From a virus (taxonomy: Duplodnaviria > Caudoviricetes), in the IMG/VR virus record IMGVR_UViG_3300011338_000268, positions 1 to 37,360 of that record: a DNA stretch of 37,360 nt; one strand, given 5' to 3'. The notes under the pieces were generated by a model. The model saw only the letters and a program-made list of their open reading frames with translations, did not search any database and had not been told where the DNA came from. Shown piece by piece: positions 8,888 through 33,187 of this stretch; the stretch's first letter is position 1, and each line of letters opens with the position of its first letter. The translations under genes and the position numbers were made by a program.

Positions 8888-10213
8888 TCATAAATGCACC
8901 GCGCAGACTGTGGTGCATATGCCTGTTCCGCTTTCTGCGAACGCCCCGACGGGCAAGTCAGCCCATGTTGGCCTTAGGTCATCAAGTTCGCCGTGATCAT
9001 ACCGCGCTGTCGCCGGCAGGATCGCCACCAACTTCCCTTTTGGCTTCAGAAACCGCAGCGCATGGCGAACGTGCTTTGCATAATGCCGCCCATAGAAAGG
9101 CGGGTTCATAACAACCAAATCAAAATCTCCCGTTGGCACTGTCTCAAGAAAATTGCCGGTCAACACGGCGTGTCCCTTGGCGCGACACTGCGCCGCCCGT
9201 GATGCGTCAAACTCTACGCCGTAGCAATCGGCCCCGGCACTGCGTAAAGCGTCTAAGAACCGCCCGCAGCCGCAAGACGGCTCTAACACGCGCAGCCCTG
9301 TAATGTTGCCCAACCCTACCACGACTTTAGCAACCACCGCGCGGGGCGTCGGGTAATATTGCAGATCCTTGCTGACTTCAGTGCTGGCCTGCTTTTTTGC
9401 GCCCGGTTCGGGGGCGTCTGGCAAAACCGCGCCGTAATATTCTGCAAGCGCGCGGTTTACATCCTTCAGCGTGTCCGGTTCAAAGAACAGGTGGCCGTTG
9501 CCGTTTTGAAACCGTTTCAGCCACACACCGCGCGCCGGGTAGTGCTGCTCTTCTCCTTTAAAATTGACTGCGCTCCACGGCTCTATGAGCGCCTGCCCGC
9601 CTGTGAGCAACTCATCTAGTTCAGCATATTCAACCAGCGGCTTGCGCTGATACGCGGCTAGGGCGTTCAAGATGTCGCGCAGACGATCACGCCCCCATGC
9701 CCCATACCCAGAAACATTTGACAATATAACGCGCTTTGGTAGCCCTGCGACGCCGATCTTAACCTTTTCATGCGACTTGAACGCCGGATCTAAGTTCGCA
9801 AACGTCTCAGCCAGCCCGCGCAAAATTGCCGCCCACGGGTCTGCAAAATAATCACCAAACTCAATCCGGATATTGTCCACAGTAAACGCGGGTGGCTGTT
9901 CAAACATCATGTCAACCCTGCGTTTATCTGCGGCGGGTAGTATATCGGCTAGATTATAAAGGGCGTAAATATGCCGCCACGCCGACTTTAGCAAAACACG
10001 GCGCGCATCTGTCTTAGACACGCGTCCAGTTTCTAGTCGGTCATTTGGAAACGTGCCGCCAATGCAGCAGGCGGCTTTCAAATCAGTTTGCGCCTGTTCA
10101 AACGTGGCGAGGGCGTCATCTAACAAGTCAATCTTTGCGTTATACTCTGCCACGATGTCGCTTGGTTTTCGGCGGCCAGTGGTAACTTCAGTCCCGTGCA
10201 TTATGTAAGACAT
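8888..10213 (-). CDS. N6-adenine DNA methyltransferase with a large N-terminal domain (DUF4942-like)
   Basis: QYYPTP (motif X), VLEPSCGCG (motif I), MNPPF (motif IV). Visibly more AT-rich than its neighbours. Confidence 0.85.
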   Translation of the reverse strand: MSYIMHGTEVTTGRRKPSDIVAEYNAKIDLLDDALATFEQAQTDLKAACCIGGTFPNDRLETGRVSKTDARRVLLKSAWRHIYALYNLADILPAADKRRVDMMFEQPPAFTVDNIRIEFGDYFADPWAAILRGLAETFANLDPAFKSHEKVKIGVAGLPKRVILSNVSGYGAWGRDRLRDILNALAAYQRKPLVEYAELDELLTGGQALIEPWSAVNFKGEEQHYPARGVWLKRFQNGNGHLFFEPDTLKDVNRALAEYYGAVLPDAPEPGAKKQASTEVSKDLQYYPTPRAVVAKVVVGLGNITGLRVLEPSCGCGRFLDALRSAGADCYGVEFDASRAAQCRAKGHAVLTGNFLETVPTGDFDLVVMNPPFYGRHYAKHVRHALRFLKPKGKLVAILPATARYDHGELDDLRPTWADLPVGAFAESGTGICTTVCAVHL

Positions 10214-12399
10214 TATACCGCCTCCCCCCCGTCGATCATATTTTCGACCAGCGCGACCCCGCCTTTGGTCACCGCGTAGGCCTTGCCGCTGTTCTTGCTT
10301 GGGCCTGTATCTTTGAAGTCCACCACCTCCAGCGCGCCCATGCCGACCAGCTGCGACAGCACGCTCAACACGCGGCCACGCGCCGCGCTTTCCTCCTTCG
10401 TCAGCTGCGACTTGACCTTTTCATAGCCCAGATCTAGGCCCAGCGCTTTGGCGACGGGATAGTCAGCACGCGATGCGCCCTTCGTGCGGCGCTCCTGCGG
10501 GGGCAGATCCTGCAACACCTGCACCGCGACCACCAGATCCCCCATGCGCTCCGCCTGCGACGCTGGCGACGGCTTCCACTGCGTCGCGACCGCCACTGTG
10601 TCCTCGTCGTTGTCTGCGTCGCCATTGCCGAACGACACGACCTCGACCTTGAGGTAATCACCACCGAAACTGCGCGGGCCCATGTTCGCCTTTGGACGCG
10701 TCAACTCGCCGTAAAGCGGGCGCTCGCTCTCTGGGATGCCCAGATCCTCCGCATCCTTCGCCGTCATCTCGTTAAGCACCATCGACACGCGCGCCGAGTT
10801 GACGATCGCGCCAGCGCCCCGGGTCGCTGTTGCGGCGCGCGACTTGCCAGCATCGACCGACGCTTTGGATGCGTGATGCAGCAGCAGGATCGCCGCCTTT
10901 GTCTCGCGCGCCACCGATCGAACCATGCCCATCAGCTTTGCCATCTGCACGTTATCGTTTTCTTCGAGTTCGTGCAGTTCCGCGATCGGGTCGAGCATCA
11001 CGACGTCGAGCCTGTTCGCGACGATGATTTTCTTGAGCACGTCGATGTCGACCGGGATCACCTCGCGCAGTTCCTGCGAAAACCGCGCGATCGTGATTTT
11101 GAGTTCATCAATCGATACCACGATCAGCCGGTCTTCAATGTCGGCGCGGGTCAGCCCGTGGATCTGCATTGCCGCGTCGACGCGCTTCGCAAGCTCTTCG
11201 GGCGGATCTTCCGACCAGATCAGCACCCGGCGCGGCTTGCCGACGCGCTCGCCCATCACCGGCTTGCCCGACGCGAGCGACAGCGCCCAGCCAATGGCGA
11301 GCGATGTCTTGCCGCCGCCGCCCGACCCAGCCAAAACTGTAACATATTGACGGATCAGCACATTGCCGAGCAGCCAGCGGCGCGGTTCATACTGATCGAG
11401 CGGGCGCGGGATGTGCCCTGCGACGGGATCCTGCGGCGGCTCGTCCTCCTCGATCGGCAGTTCTGGGTCATCATCCGCCCCAAGCAGCCCGACCAAGGCG
11501 TCGAGCACGGCGCGCTCATCGCGGGGCTTGAACCTGCGCATGGCCCCGTCGAGCGCACGGTCTGCGTCCTTGCGCGCCTTCTGCCACCTGCCCAGCGCCG
11601 CGCCGCCTGTTGGCCGCGCTTCATCGTAAAGCGCCATCAGCGCCGCGAGCGCCGCGTCCTGTTCCACCCCCGCCAGCGCCCACCGCTTGGTCAATTCCAG
11701 CGTCGTATAGTGGAAATCGGTTCCGCTGCGGATCCGCTGTTCCAGATCCTCGACATCGACGCCCGACAGATCCGCGCCAGCATCTGCCGCGCCGCTGACG
11801 CGGTAGGCTGTTTGCATCCGCAGCAGATCCGCGAGCAGCGCGCGCGACATCTCCGGCGGTTCGACATCGTGCATCACCGAATAGCCCAGCGACGGGGGCC
11901 AGACGACAAAGCCGCTCGCGCCCCTGATGTCGATCGCGTCGGCAGTCTTGCGCGATGACACGACGGCCCCAGCGGCTGCAAAGATGAAATGTTTCCCGCC
12001 GCTGGTCGTGCGGTGGATCCGCGCCTGCGCCAGTTCTGCCGCATGGCGCTCAAAAAACGCTTCGGCCACTGGGTCGTCTTTCTTCGCGCGATCGTCATCA
12101 ATCACGACCAGACCCGCTGCACCGGTCGCAACACCGATCGCTGTTGCGCGCTCTCCCGCCTCGATCATCATCGCCTCTATGACGGATCGGTCGCGCGTTG
12201 CCGCATAAAACCCGGCTTTGAAATCATCGCCTGCGCCATGCCCCCAGCAGTGGCGCGCGCAAATATCGCGGTTCAACGCAGGGATCTTGTGCTTTGACCC
12301 CTCTTTATCGGTATAGACATTCACCCAGAAAATCGGGTATTTAGTGCTTGCGGTGATCGCGTCCGCTAGGAGTTGTGTTCGGTCAGTGTTCTGGCTCAT
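10213..12399 (-). CDS. Bifunctional primase-polymerase (Prim-Pol) / RepA-like AAA helicase
   Basis: GVATG..GLVVIDDD, RTTSGGKHFIF and DIRGASGFVVWPPS (Prim-Pol). GSGGGGKT, VVMLDP, LLHHASK and RGAGAI (AAA_25/SF4-like). Confidence 0.9.
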   Translation of the reverse strand: MSQNTDRTQLLADAITASTKYPIFWVNVYTDKEGSKHKIPALNRDICARHCWGHGAGDDFKAGFYAATRDRSVIEAMMIEAGERATAIGVATGAAGLVVIDDDRAKKDDPVAEAFFERHAAELAQARIHRTTSGGKHFIFAAAGAVVSSRKTADAIDIRGASGFVVWPPSLGYSVMHDVEPPEMSRALLADLLRMQTAYRVSGAADAGADLSGVDVEDLEQRIRSGTDFHYTTLELTKRWALAGVEQDAALAALMALYDEARPTGGAALGRWQKARKDADRALDGAMRRFKPRDERAVLDALVGLLGADDDPELPIEEDEPPQDPVAGHIPRPLDQYEPRRWLLGNVLIRQYVTVLAGSGGGGKTSLAIGWALSLASGKPVMGERVGKPRRVLIWSEDPPEELAKRVDAAMQIHGLTRADIEDRLIVVSIDELKITIARFSQELREVIPVDIDVLKKIIVANRLDVVMLDPIAELHELEENDNVQMAKLMGMVRSVARETKAAILLLHHASKASVDAGKSRAATATRGAGAIVNSARVSMVLNEMTAKDAEDLGIPESERPLYGELTRPKANMGPRSFGGDYLKVEVVSFGNGDADNDEDTVAVATQWKPSPASQAERMGDLVVAVQVLQDLPPQERRTKGASRADYPVAKALGLDLGYEKVKSQLTKEESAARGRVLSVLSQLVGMGALEVVDFKDTGPSKNSGKAYAVTKGGVALVENMIDGGEAV

Positions 12400-12402
12400 A
12401 AT
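12373..12402 (+). promoter_or_regulatory. Candidate promoter for the antisense sRNA
   Basis: TTGTGT-N18-CATAAT, overlapping the primase start codon on the opposite strand. Confidence 0.4.
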
Positions 12403-12473
12403 ATCCTCGCTGTTGTGTATCCTTGGCAGGTCTGCACAATAAACCCAAGACTGCGATCACCGCAAGCCTGCAT
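12396..12473 (-). CDS. Candidate 25-aa leader peptide translationally coupled to the primase-helicase
   Basis: Strong SD GGGAGGT 8 nt before ATG 12473. MQACGDRSLGFIVQTCQGYTTARIL*. The stop overlaps the primase ATG (ATGA). Confidence 0.4.
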   Translation of the reverse strand: MQACGDRSLGFIVQTCQGYTTARIL

Positions 12474-12523
12474 GGATCTCTACCTCCCTGACTAATCACC
12501 CGCTCCGGCGGGTGATCTTTTTT
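12409..12523 (+). ncRNA. Predicted antisense/trans-acting small RNA with a suhB/MmgR-like 3' end
   Basis: 5' hairpin 12411-12441 with a UGGC loop, anti-SD CCTCCC-tg-ACT at 12483, and an intrinsic terminator. No plus-strand gene lies upstream to need that terminator. Confidence 0.55.
12495..12523 (+). terminator. Rho-independent terminator
   Basis: ATCACCCGC-TCCG-GCGGGTGAT-CTTTTTT. Confidence 0.8.
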
Positions 12524-12527
12524 CGTT

Positions 12528-12574
12528 GACCGGTCTTGCGGGGGTTGACGGCGCGTTTGATCTGAGCGTATGAC
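12528..12574 (+). promoter_or_regulatory. Early promoter with an upstream GACCGGTC palindrome
   Basis: GACCGGTCTT at 12528, then TTGACG(12545)-N18-TATGAC. Confidence 0.55.
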
Positions 12575-12627
12575 TGAGACCGGGCCGAATGGGCCCACGT
12601 AGCAACGTAAACCGAAAGCGACCTGCC

Positions 12628-14090: not shown

Positions 14091-14122
14091 TCACGAAGTA
14101 TTCCAACAAAGGAGACCTGCCC

Positions 14123-14287
14123 ATGACACCTGAAGATTTCAAAAACTGCCCCGGCTGCGAAGGGGGAAAAAACTGGCCTTGGGATCAAACCGCTTGGACG
14201 TGCCCAGTTTGCGCCCTGATTTATCTCGACGACGAAGATGCTGAACTGAACGCAATCAAAAACCAGAACGAGGAGACCTGCCTATGA
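14123..14287 (+). CDS. Small zinc-finger protein (54 aa)
   Basis: CPGC...CPVC. SD GGAG within the GGAGACCTGCC motif. Confidence 0.65.
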   Translation: MTPEDFKNCPGCEGGKNWPWDQTAWTCPVCALIYLDDEDAELNAIKNQNEETCL

Positions 14288-15273: not shown

Positions 15274-15311
15274 TCGCCAGAACGTAGCAACGTGCAAAAT
15301 AGGAGCACAAT

Positions 15312-16043: not shown

Positions 16044-16065
16044 GCCATCATTTAAGGCCTGCCCC

Positions 16066-17876: not shown

Positions 17877-17915
17877 AAGACCGGTCTTGACGCCGCTTGC
17901 GACCGGTCTTATATA
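17877..17915 (+). promoter_or_regulatory. Strong sigma70-like early promoter overlapped by two GACCGGTC operators
   Basis: TTGACG(17887)-N17-TATATA(17910). AAGACCGGTCTT at 17877-17888 and GACCGGTCTT at 17901-17910. Confidence 0.75.
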
Positions 17916-18133: not shown

Positions 18134-18155
18134 ACCAAAACCACGGAGACCTGCC

Positions 18156-18617: not shown

Positions 18618-18628
18618 GGGGACCTGCC

Positions 18629-19243: not shown

Positions 19244-19254
19244 GGAGACCTGCC

Positions 19255-19385: not shown

Positions 19386-19724
19386 ATGCAAGTTCCACTG
19401 TCCTACCATCTGCCCGCCATGTTCGGATCCGCCGCAGAGCGCGCCGCGCTATTCGACGACATCAGCGCGCGCGGGATCCTCGAAACGTCCGACCTGACCG
19501 ACTTTGTATCCATGACCGCGCGCGTGATCGAAGACGCTGAAACGCGCGCCGAAGCTGCGCGCGCGGAAGCGCGGCACGGCTTCAGGTCTTCGATGTCCGC
19601 CGCAGAACTCGCTTCCGTCGAGGCGAAAATCACGGCGGCGTTCGACGAATTGATTTGCCGGCATCCGAAACTGTCGGATGAATTGCGCGACACCTGCCTG
19701 CTTTTGATCTTGGAGGTGCGCTGA
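19386..19724 (+). CDS. Hypothetical protein (112 aa, helical)
   Basis: SD AAGGAG before ATG 19386. Confidence 0.7.
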   Translation: MQVPLSYHLPAMFGSAAERAALFDDISARGILETSDLTDFVSMTARVIEDAETRAEAARAEARHGFRSSMSAAELASVEAKITAAFDELICRHPKLSDELRDTCLLLILEVR

Positions 19725-19903
19725 TGGAAGACGCAGTCAATGAGCGCCGCCGCAAAGCCCGGGAGCGCAAGCGCGCCGAGCGCGCCCAGTTCGCAGATCG
19801 CGGGCTGGCGCGGGTGGAGGTCGTCGTCCCGGCGACCAAATCCGACCAGATCCGCGCGCTGGCGGAAATGTTGAACGAACCGAAACCAGAAGGGGGCGAA
19901 TGA
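19724..19903 (+). CDS. Small basic protein, ribbon-helix-helix-like DNA binder (59 aa)
   Basis: SD GGAGG. MEDAVNERRRKARERKRAERAQFADRGLARVEVVVPATKSDQIRALAEMLNE: basic helix, G+.RVEV.VP strand, helix. Confidence 0.65.
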   Translation: MEDAVNERRRKARERKRAERAQFADRGLARVEVVVPATKSDQIRALAEMLNEPKPEGGE

Positions 19904-32333: not shown

Positions 32334-32753
32334 TTATGAGCTGGTGTAACTATACCATGAAATGGACACAGTGACGATATACCACGGCGCATCGAGCACG
32401 GCGACCCCGCGCTCTGCGTAATTGAACCGCACATTCACGCCGTTAGACGTCAGCCCGGTGTCGACTGTAAAGGCGGCGCGGATCGCGTCTGCCAGCGCGT
32501 CTGCGGCCGCTGGGCCTGCGCCCTCTGGCAAGTGCGCGGTGACAAGAAAGCTGCCATCGTGCCGGATCTGCGGGCTGGGCCCGCGCACGGCTGGGCGGCT
32601 CGTCACGGGCACAAGCGCCATGCGAACCCATGCGGTGTTGGTTGTTGGGGTGAACCGCACGTTCTCCCACGCGCGATTGCTCGATGACGGGATCCCCGAA
32701 ACATTGGCGATCTGCTGTTCAAGAGCCGCGCGGATGTCTTGCATCACTGTCAT
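32334..32753 (-). CDS. Tail terminator protein
   Basis: AWENVRFTP..WVR, GPAAADALADAIRAAF and WYIVTVSISW. Gene position fits. Confidence 0.75.
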   Translation of the reverse strand: MTVMQDIRAALEQQIANVSGIPSSSNRAWENVRFTPTTNTAWVRMALVPVTSRPAVRGPSPQIRHDGSFLVTAHLPEGAGPAAADALADAIRAAFTVDTGLTSNGVNVRFNYAERGVAVLDAPWYIVTVSISWYSYTSS

Positions 32754-33187
32754 GGGATCCCCGCCGCTTTGATGTTCCGGATCTCGACCACGACATCTGC
32801 GGCAATCGCTGAAGCGCGCGCCAGCACCTTTGCCAGGAACTGCGTGCGCGCTTCAACAAAGATCGCATAGTTCGCGCCATTCAGCAGATAGAGCGACCCG
32901 TCGAGGCTTGCCAGCGCGCCAGCCTGCCCAGAGAGGCGCGCAAGTGTTGCCCCCGGCGCGCCTGCGGTGACTTCGCCCTGCCCAGCGCCGGGCGACCCTG
33001 TGAGTGTGGGGGAGAGGAACCACGATGCACGGAGCCGCCCGGTCTTCACCGGCGTGCCGCGCACGACCTCAAGCGCAAGCCGGTTTGCAAACTCGTTGCG
33101 CGCCTGCGCGACAGTCGCCCCTGCGTCAGCGGCGAGCTTGTCGAGGTCGACTGTGATTTTCTGGAGGAGCTGGCCCTGCGCCATCAT
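32750..33187 (-). CDS. Neck/tail completion protein (HK97 gp10-like)
   Basis: TPVKTGRLRASW and NGANYAIFVE. Confidence 0.75.
   Translation of the reverse strand: MMAQGQLLQKITVDLDKLAADAGATVAQARNEFANRLALEVVRGTPVKTGRLRASWFLSPTLTGSPGAGQGEVTAGAPGATLARLSGQAGALASLDGSLYLLNGANYAIFVEARTQFLAKVLARASAIAADVVVEIRNIKAAGIP

Follow-up and report, generated by a model that had tools for sequence, protein, structure and literature searches.

The replication genes of a freshwater, uncultured phage are probably repressed by one antisense RNA encoded by the phage itself, which is predicted to act in cis on the primase mRNA and in trans on early genes whose start codons carry a short complementary tag. The window analyzed here is the complete phage record of 37,360 bp, with terminal repeats (IMGVR_UViG_3300011338_000268). 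A sequence-only reading had already proposed a plus-strand RNA of ~115 nt that silences the primase in cis and other early genes in trans. Conservation, covariation, strand asymmetry, and the different but matching loop and tag of a sister lineage all favor that general scheme, whereas the promoter and the 115-nt length given with it cannot account for the whole structured element.

The phage and its relatives

The gene for a primase-helicase lies on the minus strand and diverges from a plus-strand early block encoding an SNF2 helicase, a PD-(D/E)XK nuclease, a DNA polymerase, a DUF6011 protein, a clamp-like protein, and small ORFs, with the leader region situated between primase and helicase. 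The structural and lysis genes are on the minus strand (PHROGs, Pfam). No integrase, repressor, or antirepressor family was matched when 50 ORFs were searched against PHROGs and 27 against Pfam; the phage appears to be lytic, and lysogeny control as the main role of the RNA was rejected. A DNA-level match to cultured phages is absent, and the best cultured-phage proteins among the matches listed are 28% identical for the helicase and 42% for the capsid, the latter from a Roseobacter phage. This capsid match, together with what we take to be the alphaproteobacterial promoter consensus, suggests an alphaproteobacterial host. The bacterial genome contigs searched contained neither the element nor a primase of the clade described below, and yielded no prophage relative or host.

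Relatives were collected as a clade of 15 loci whose helicases are at least 75% identical; 10 of these reach the primase leader, and 5 are contigs that end earlier. The clade stands without intermediates, since a protein search was empty between 77% and 47% identity.

A tag at the starts of the replication genes

Eight copies of the sequence GACCTGCC are present in the genome: seven on the plus strand, six of them at gene starts, and a sole minus-strand copy at 12425-12432, inside the primase leader. For one strand of this 228-bp intergenic stretch, 0.007 tag copies are expected by chance. Counted as GACCTGCC-N0-3-ATG, the tag was found 6 times where 0.16 would be expected, a number that none of 100 shuffles attained, always on the plus strand and always at the start of an early gene. 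The complementarity from which the idea arose was verified in the sequence: the reverse complement of 12424-12433 matches AGACCTGCCA exactly at 18147 and 19246, and 9-nt matches occur at 12620, 14113, 14274, and 18621. A wobble variant at the DNA polymerase start had been overlooked. The predicted cis target and the tagged starts are as follows.

10213-12399, minus strand: Prim-Pol/AAA_25 primase-helicase (Pfam PF09250, PF13481), predicted cis target
12620-12627, plus strand: tag at the SNF2-type helicase start, without a canonical SD; exact in 11 of 11 distinct upstream sequences
14114-14121, plus strand: tag at the start of a 54-aa ORF (sequence match)
14275-14282, plus strand: tag at the start of a PD-(D/E)XK/Cas4-like exonuclease (sequence match; profile-based gene call)
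16056-16063, plus strand: wobble variant GGCCTGCC at the DNA polymerase start (ATG 16066)
18148-18155, plus strand: tag at the start of a DUF6011 protein (sequence match)
18621-18628, plus strand: tag at the start of a sliding-clamp-like protein (PF02767)
19247-19254, plus strand: tag at the start of a 39-aa ORF (sequence match)

An exact or wobble tag is present at the polymerase start in 12 of 15 distinct upstream sequences; this start, like that of the helicase, is without a canonical SD yet keeps the tag. Genes newly inserted beside the RNA locus in relatives are also tagged. In most relatives, the terminator and the helicase promoter are separated by one or two small genes with a tag, which the window and L001 lack (window 12524-12545 compared with L002-L012). 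A scan with the tag pattern returned 14 viral loci, 7 of them new; two of these, L100 and L102, are clade members, and the other 5, all single-copy matches, were taken as chance.

An antisense RNA predicted over the primase leader

Leader sequences were available from the window and 12 relatives; 12 of the 13 entered the alignment, with L070 left out. The predicted elements of the locus, in order along the plus strand, are these.

12314-12343, plus strand: predicted RNA promoter, TAGACA (12314-12319), N18, TATTTA (12338-12343), within primase codons 19-29
12349-12523, plus strand: predicted antisense RNA of ~175 nt, comprising closing stem P1, inner hairpins P2 and P3, a linker, and a terminator
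12349-12363, plus strand: P1 5' arm (13 pairs), antisense to primase codons 13-17
12365-12410, plus strand: P2 hairpin, containing the complement of the primase SD and start codon
12373-12402, plus strand: promoter of the sequence-only reading, which may act as a nested promoter of a shorter RNA and shares bases with the primase start codon
12411-12441, plus strand: P3 seed hairpin, with loop UGGC (12424-12427) and seed UGGCAGGUCU (12424-12433)
12436-12465, minus strand: predicted primase promoter TTGCGG-N18-TATTGT, with the mRNA start at about the tag copy (12432)
12449-12464, plus strand: P1 3' arm; on the minus strand these bases form the -35 box and spacer of the predicted primase promoter
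12495-12523, plus strand: intrinsic terminator, with a U-run on the plus strand only (fold z = -3.98)

Several of these elements had been recognized from the outset, and the hairpin at 12411-12441, the CCTCCC motif at 12483-12488, and the terminator at 12495-12523, which has no plus-strand gene upstream, were all found in the sequence as described. The structured element, however, starts ~60 nt farther upstream than the ~115-nt RNA that had been proposed, within the primase gene, and the modeled RNA is probably about 175 nt long (12349-12523) rather than 115. The ~175-nt form made from an upstream promoter is the more likely because the covarying stem, which begins at 12349, cannot be explained by a 115-nt form; a shorter, nested RNA may also exist. 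Fully complementary to the first ~85 nt of the primase mRNA, the predicted RNA recurs in 13 of 13 clade sequences at 171-177 nt, with a similar fold and a closed 5' end, and its consensus fold energy is -55.3 kcal/mol on the plus strand versus -45.5 on the minus strand. The contigs of four RNA-labelled runs, three of which are probably DNA, gave negligible cover, and the single true metatranscriptome has no contig over 12150-12750; these data speak neither for nor against the RNA.

The upstream promoter, TAGACA-N18-TATTTA, is found in 13 of 13 clade sequences, and the transcription start predicted from it is the first base of P1. Codon usage in 11 primase genes (L070 and L081 left out) bears on whether this promoter is maintained as such. 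Under it, Thr is encoded by ACT in 11/11 cases versus 2/198 elsewhere, Lys by AAA in 11/11 versus 38/275, and Asn by AAT in 11/11 versus 19/121, while codon invariance there is barely above that in the rest of the gene (5/11 versus 121/465). The putative promoter signal thus appears to reside in A/T-ending codons otherwise avoided by the phage, rather than in general codon invariance. The promoter named in the sequence-only reading, TTGTGT-N18-CATAAT at 12373-12402, does exist in the sequence and is partly kept (TTG in 12/13, CATnnT in 13/13), a conservation confounded by coding and by the start codon, as the CAT within its CATAAT box doubles as that codon of the primase. As the sole promoter it was rejected, the covarying stem beginning upstream of it at 12349. 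On the minus strand, the primase promoter has the form TTGCRG-N18-TATnnT in 13/13, and the tag always lies 3 nt past its -10 box; because this promoter would start the primase mRNA at about the tag copy, the predicted RNA and primase promoters converge.

A second promoter class, CTTGAC...TTATAT, drives small-gene cassettes, and its -35 and -10 boxes are flanked by the palindrome GACCGGTC (four copies versus 0.8 expected), located at 12528-12535, 17879-17886, and 17901-17908 and at the same place in relatives (e.g. L002 9270-9300). This palindrome is likely an operator for a phage protein, and a candidate repressor that might bind these sites is the basic, 59-aa product of ORF 19724-19903, for which a MazE-like feature match is weak (14% of one cluster). 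Another leader motif, GTAGCAACGT, is found at 12599-12608 before the helicase and at 15284-15293 before an untagged 232-aa gene; it is kept in relatives, its count by itself being not significant.

Conservation and covariation of the predicted RNA

The reverse copy of the tag is present exactly once in each of the 10 loci that reach the primase leader. In all 13 leader sequences the seed stays in the UGGC loop and the terminator on the plus strand. Fold predictions leave the UGGC loop unpaired at P ≥ 0.89 in 13/13, and UUGG, which fits the YUNR motif as had been noticed initially, is invariant, its first U being predicted as paired. Across the 12 aligned sequences, 36 of 100 leader columns are invariant, and the longest invariant run is the 12-nt CCTTGGCAGGTC.

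The stem P1 (12349-12363 with 12449-12464) carries a record of paired change. Its 13 pairs are paired in 99.4% of cells, and 3 of them have changed on both sides through at least four separate events on the primase tree, including a U-A to U-G to C-G series; the shuffle controls for P1 ignored the relatedness of the sequences. An intermediate that forms a G-U pair on the plus strand is an A-C mismatch on the minus strand, so the intermediates, read as predicted pairs, fit an RNA from the plus strand only. The terminator adds 2 pairs with changes on both sides. P2 folds in single-sequence predictions, with pairing that varies between subgroups, and is absent from the consensus structure. Compensatory changes are absent from P3, and the seed is invariant throughout the window's clade, which therefore offers no covariation of seed and tag in support of trans pairing.

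Pairing in trans

An accessibility-corrected pairing scan of 45 start regions, with the DNA polymerase start left out, placed the primase and the six exact-tag genes at ranks 1-7, a ranking with some circularity, since the seed itself served to define the tag. Next came a tail-completion gene at -7.3 kcal/mol, with its site within the coding sequence. Variation among the tags themselves supplies further evidence. At homologous clade starts, 13 distinct upstream sequences carry a tag with a single mismatch, A2G in 4, C3U in 8, and C7U in 1, and all 13 still pair with the seed through G-U. The occurrence of these three wobble types alone has a p of about 0.005 against all substitutions and of about 0.18 against transitions alone, and the wobble-compatible variants thus offer modest, sequence-level evidence for trans pairing. 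The exceptions are the non-wobble polymerase tags GACGCGCC (two sequences) and GGCATGCC, the non-wobble helicase tag GCCCTGCC on one depth-6.5 contig that also has the seed region, one exonuclease start with three tag changes, and the DUF6011 starts of one subgroup, which are tagless.

Beyond the tag set, ATCTGCCAAG lies 7-16 nt upstream of the gene at 33187-32750 (minus strand; 32750-33187) and has potential for 10-bp pairing with the seed. It is kept in three of four whole relatives checked, a conservation explained by the protein-coding sequence of the gene before it.

A sister lineage with a different loop and tag

In a sister lineage, with helicases about 55% identical, the RNA locus has the same layout as in the window. 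Thirty-one distant loci were scanned, and primase N-termini were located in 19. An antisense promoter of the form TTGATY-N18-TATAAW lies in the first primase codons of 12 of these, with a looser match in 1 and none in 6; the strict pattern is absent from 24,447 nt of primase body. The predicted sister RNA consists of a 5' hairpin, a second hairpin, and then a terminator over the primase promoter, and 9 of the 30 predicted pairs of hairpins and terminator changed on both sides (9 aligned sequences). A covariance model (R1) recovered clade members and class-II promoters only and did not detect the sister-lineage RNA. The window and sister RNAs are positional counterparts, with homology by position and layout, not by sequence.

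The loop of the sister 5' hairpin is complementary to the RBS of the primase. This loop (UGGUCUCC or UAGUCUCC) also matches, in 8 of 14 phages, the phage's own, different tag at several other gene starts. L035 has the A-containing loop UAGUCUCC and GGAGACU at four genes, where its relatives have the loop UGGUCUCC and GGAGACC; the comparison, made with homologous genes from L025, L027, or L029, points to the loop and four tags having changed together. As an alternative for this lineage, shared RBS drift could have moved loop and tags together, since the primase's own RBS, read on the reverse strand, makes up the loop. A good match of loop and tag is absent from the remaining 6 of 14 (L030, L033, L038, L043, L013, L053), of which L030, L043, L013, and L053 have multi-copy tags despite the poor match, and the complete genome G001 has its own tag in 5 forward and 0 reverse copies. 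Pairing predictions separate the two lineages: seeds of the window's clade reach -16 to -19 kcal/mol with starts of their own clade versus -4 to -10 with sister starts. The reverse control, with sister loops giving -10 to -18 kcal/mol against window-clade starts, is weaker because sister loops contain an anti-SD.

A third lineage (L013 3920-4100, L108 17500-17650; G005, G001) carries the tag GGAGGTCAC/GGAGGTCGC and a leader segment, GCGACCUU, with 8-nt pairing to its own helicase and polymerase starts; its antisense promoter is weak or absent.

Proposed mechanism and alternatives

We propose that host polymerase would make the RNA from the onset of infection, off a promoter hidden in the early primase codons, and that the closed 5' stem would stabilize it. 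The UGGC loop would pair with the GCCA beside the AUG, the weak 3-bp CCU/AGG stem would open, and an 8-10-bp duplex with the GACCUGCC tag would form under the 30S site, occluding it at the helicase, exonuclease, polymerase, clamp, and small early genes. On the primase mRNA, pairing would extend over the SD and AUG, and full complementarity would block translation. As the stable RNA accumulates after infection, the replication module would be turned down, by negative feedback or as an early-to-late timer. Such a feedback shut-down is the outcome that we judge to be likely, and superinfection exclusion is a possible side effect.

The main competing explanation, which we consider improbable although not negligible, is that the RNA acts in cis on the primase only and that the tag is a sense-strand site for a protein (a translational repressor or nuclease), the leader copy being a further site of this kind at the 5' end of the primase mRNA. 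T4 RegA and RegB offer a model for such a protein-read tag. With the 5' end of the primase mRNA predicted at the leader copy of the tag, the invariance of this copy might reflect a function on the sense strand, and the distant phages that are tagged without a matching loop are what this explanation would lead one to expect; protein binding was also left open by the authors who described a comparable tag in mycobacteriophages, in the part of their account available (PMC3203893). Against it, a gap of 33-34 nt separates the leader copy from the primase AUG downstream, whereas the copies at tagged genes lie 0-3 nt from theirs, the complement of the leader copy sits exactly in the exposed loop, single-mismatch tags are wobble-compatible, and loop and tag co-change in L035. 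The ORFs scanned (PHROGs, Pfam) likewise matched no RNA-binding protein family.

A second explanation accepts the pairing and differs over its effect: the RNA would activate or stabilize the tagged mRNAs, or these mRNAs would titrate the RNA and so free the primase. The SD-less helicase and polymerase starts do keep the tag, and titration is to be expected where many sites share a single seed. A duplex formed between SD and AUG falls, however, under the 30S footprint, the classic repressive position, and we regard this explanation as very unlikely. Slightly less probable still is that there is no regulatory RNA, the inverted repeats being a DNA element (origin, primase-loading hairpin, or operator) and the tag a shared RBS style spread by the exchange of small-gene cassettes, for although the primase and helicase genes diverge from this region and relatives swap in cassettes with the same promoter and tag directly after the terminator, this would leave unexplained the plus-strand promoter held on rare codons, the one-sided terminator without an upstream gene, the antisense promoters close to consensus in the sister lineage, and the tags at SD-less helicase and polymerase starts.

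Relation to known regulatory systems

For the antisense RNA acting in cis and trans, which remains the reading that we prefer, partial parallels exist among plasmids, bacteria, and phages. CopA/CopT and Inc are antisense RNAs that control plasmid replication, made from a convergent promoter and with one target each. The present RNA resembles them in its convergent promoter, its antisense position over the leader of a replication initiator, the loop-initiated pairing, and the fit of UUGG to YUNR; at the sequence level, the convergent promoter and terminator span the primase RBS. It differs in that its promoter is within coding sequence and its loop also matches unlinked genes. YUNR U-turn loops are described in the accessible part of PMC4152353.

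A CCUCCC-type anti-SD motif is a feature of the suhB/MmgR (alpha-r8) sRNAs, to which the RNA had initially been likened. The likeness amounts to a C/U-rich linker before the terminator in 9 of 13 sequences, the CCUCCC motif being absent in the other 4, and here it is the seed and stems that are conserved rather than the linker. The resemblance was not borne out in Rfam, where suhB/MmgR, C4, and other families all went unmatched (window at E ≤ 1; L058 at E ≤ 10).

In P1/P7, the c4 antisense RNA uses a loop-displayed complement to pair near the RBS and block translation of a phage mRNA, as set out in the available text of PMC12197685. The RNA described here similarly displays, in a predicted loop, a complement aimed at an RBS region. 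The two differ in that the target of c4 is the ant mRNA, in a temperate phage, whereas seven replication genes and the cis target are predicted here, in a phage whose scanned ORFs gave no antirepressor, integrase, or repressor match.

The closest parallel to the tag is the start-associated sequence (SAS) of Cluster K mycobacteriophages, which, in the accessible portions of the two reports, is an asymmetric tag just before the ATG of non-structural genes only, has a single opposite-orientation copy in four K1 phages, and was described as having no known function in 2011 and again in 2024 (PMC3203893, PMC11373665). The window tag is likewise found in one orientation, a few nt from the ATG, at non-structural genes only, and with a single reverse copy; its sequence and host are different, making it analogous to SAS rather than a member. 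Those portions of the reports propose no RNA for the reverse SAS (PMC3203893, PMC11373665), in contrast to the promoter-to-terminator unit with covariation found here. In Anaya, SAS occurs 16 times forward and once in reverse in 32.8 kb, and the reverse copy is intergenic and, in 2 of the 3 segments folded, is predicted to lie in a loop of 10 nt. This copy (L128 31871-31883; JF704106, about 59870-59882) places CCUCCUAUCC in a predicted hairpin loop and lies downstream of a promoter-like TTGGCG...TAGACT. The reverse SAS of Angelica is inside annotated gene 92, none is present in the TM4 and Pixie stretches (31 and 36 kb of the genomes), and a BLAST search with the SAS motif found nothing.

No description of the present RNA, or of a one-RNA regulon for phage replication, was found in the literature searched, a scope outside which most subscription papers fall. 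The 6 supplementary files of Fremin 2023 (PMC10690425) that were searched lack the seed; 3 others may contain this RNA.

Implications

To our knowledge, the phage antisense RNAs described so far mostly control one phage mRNA each. We would put at about even chances a broader reading, taken as a whole, in which some phages use a single RNA of their own to read a private tag that evolved between the SD and the AUG of every replication gene; this RNA began as an antisense to the primase RBS, as in the sister lineage, with the seed later separated in the window's clade; and the same logic explains the Cluster K1 SAS tags, including the Anaya reverse copy in its predicted 10-nt loop. In the phage studied here, one RNA is predicted to address a whole set of replication genes by means of a private tag and without a repressor protein, which would give an apparently lytic phage a compact means to time or cap its DNA replication and would constitute a small, orthogonal multi-gene switch. 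The model also suggests a function for the start-associated sequences of mycobacteriophages, one that would be testable in cultured Cluster K1 phages.
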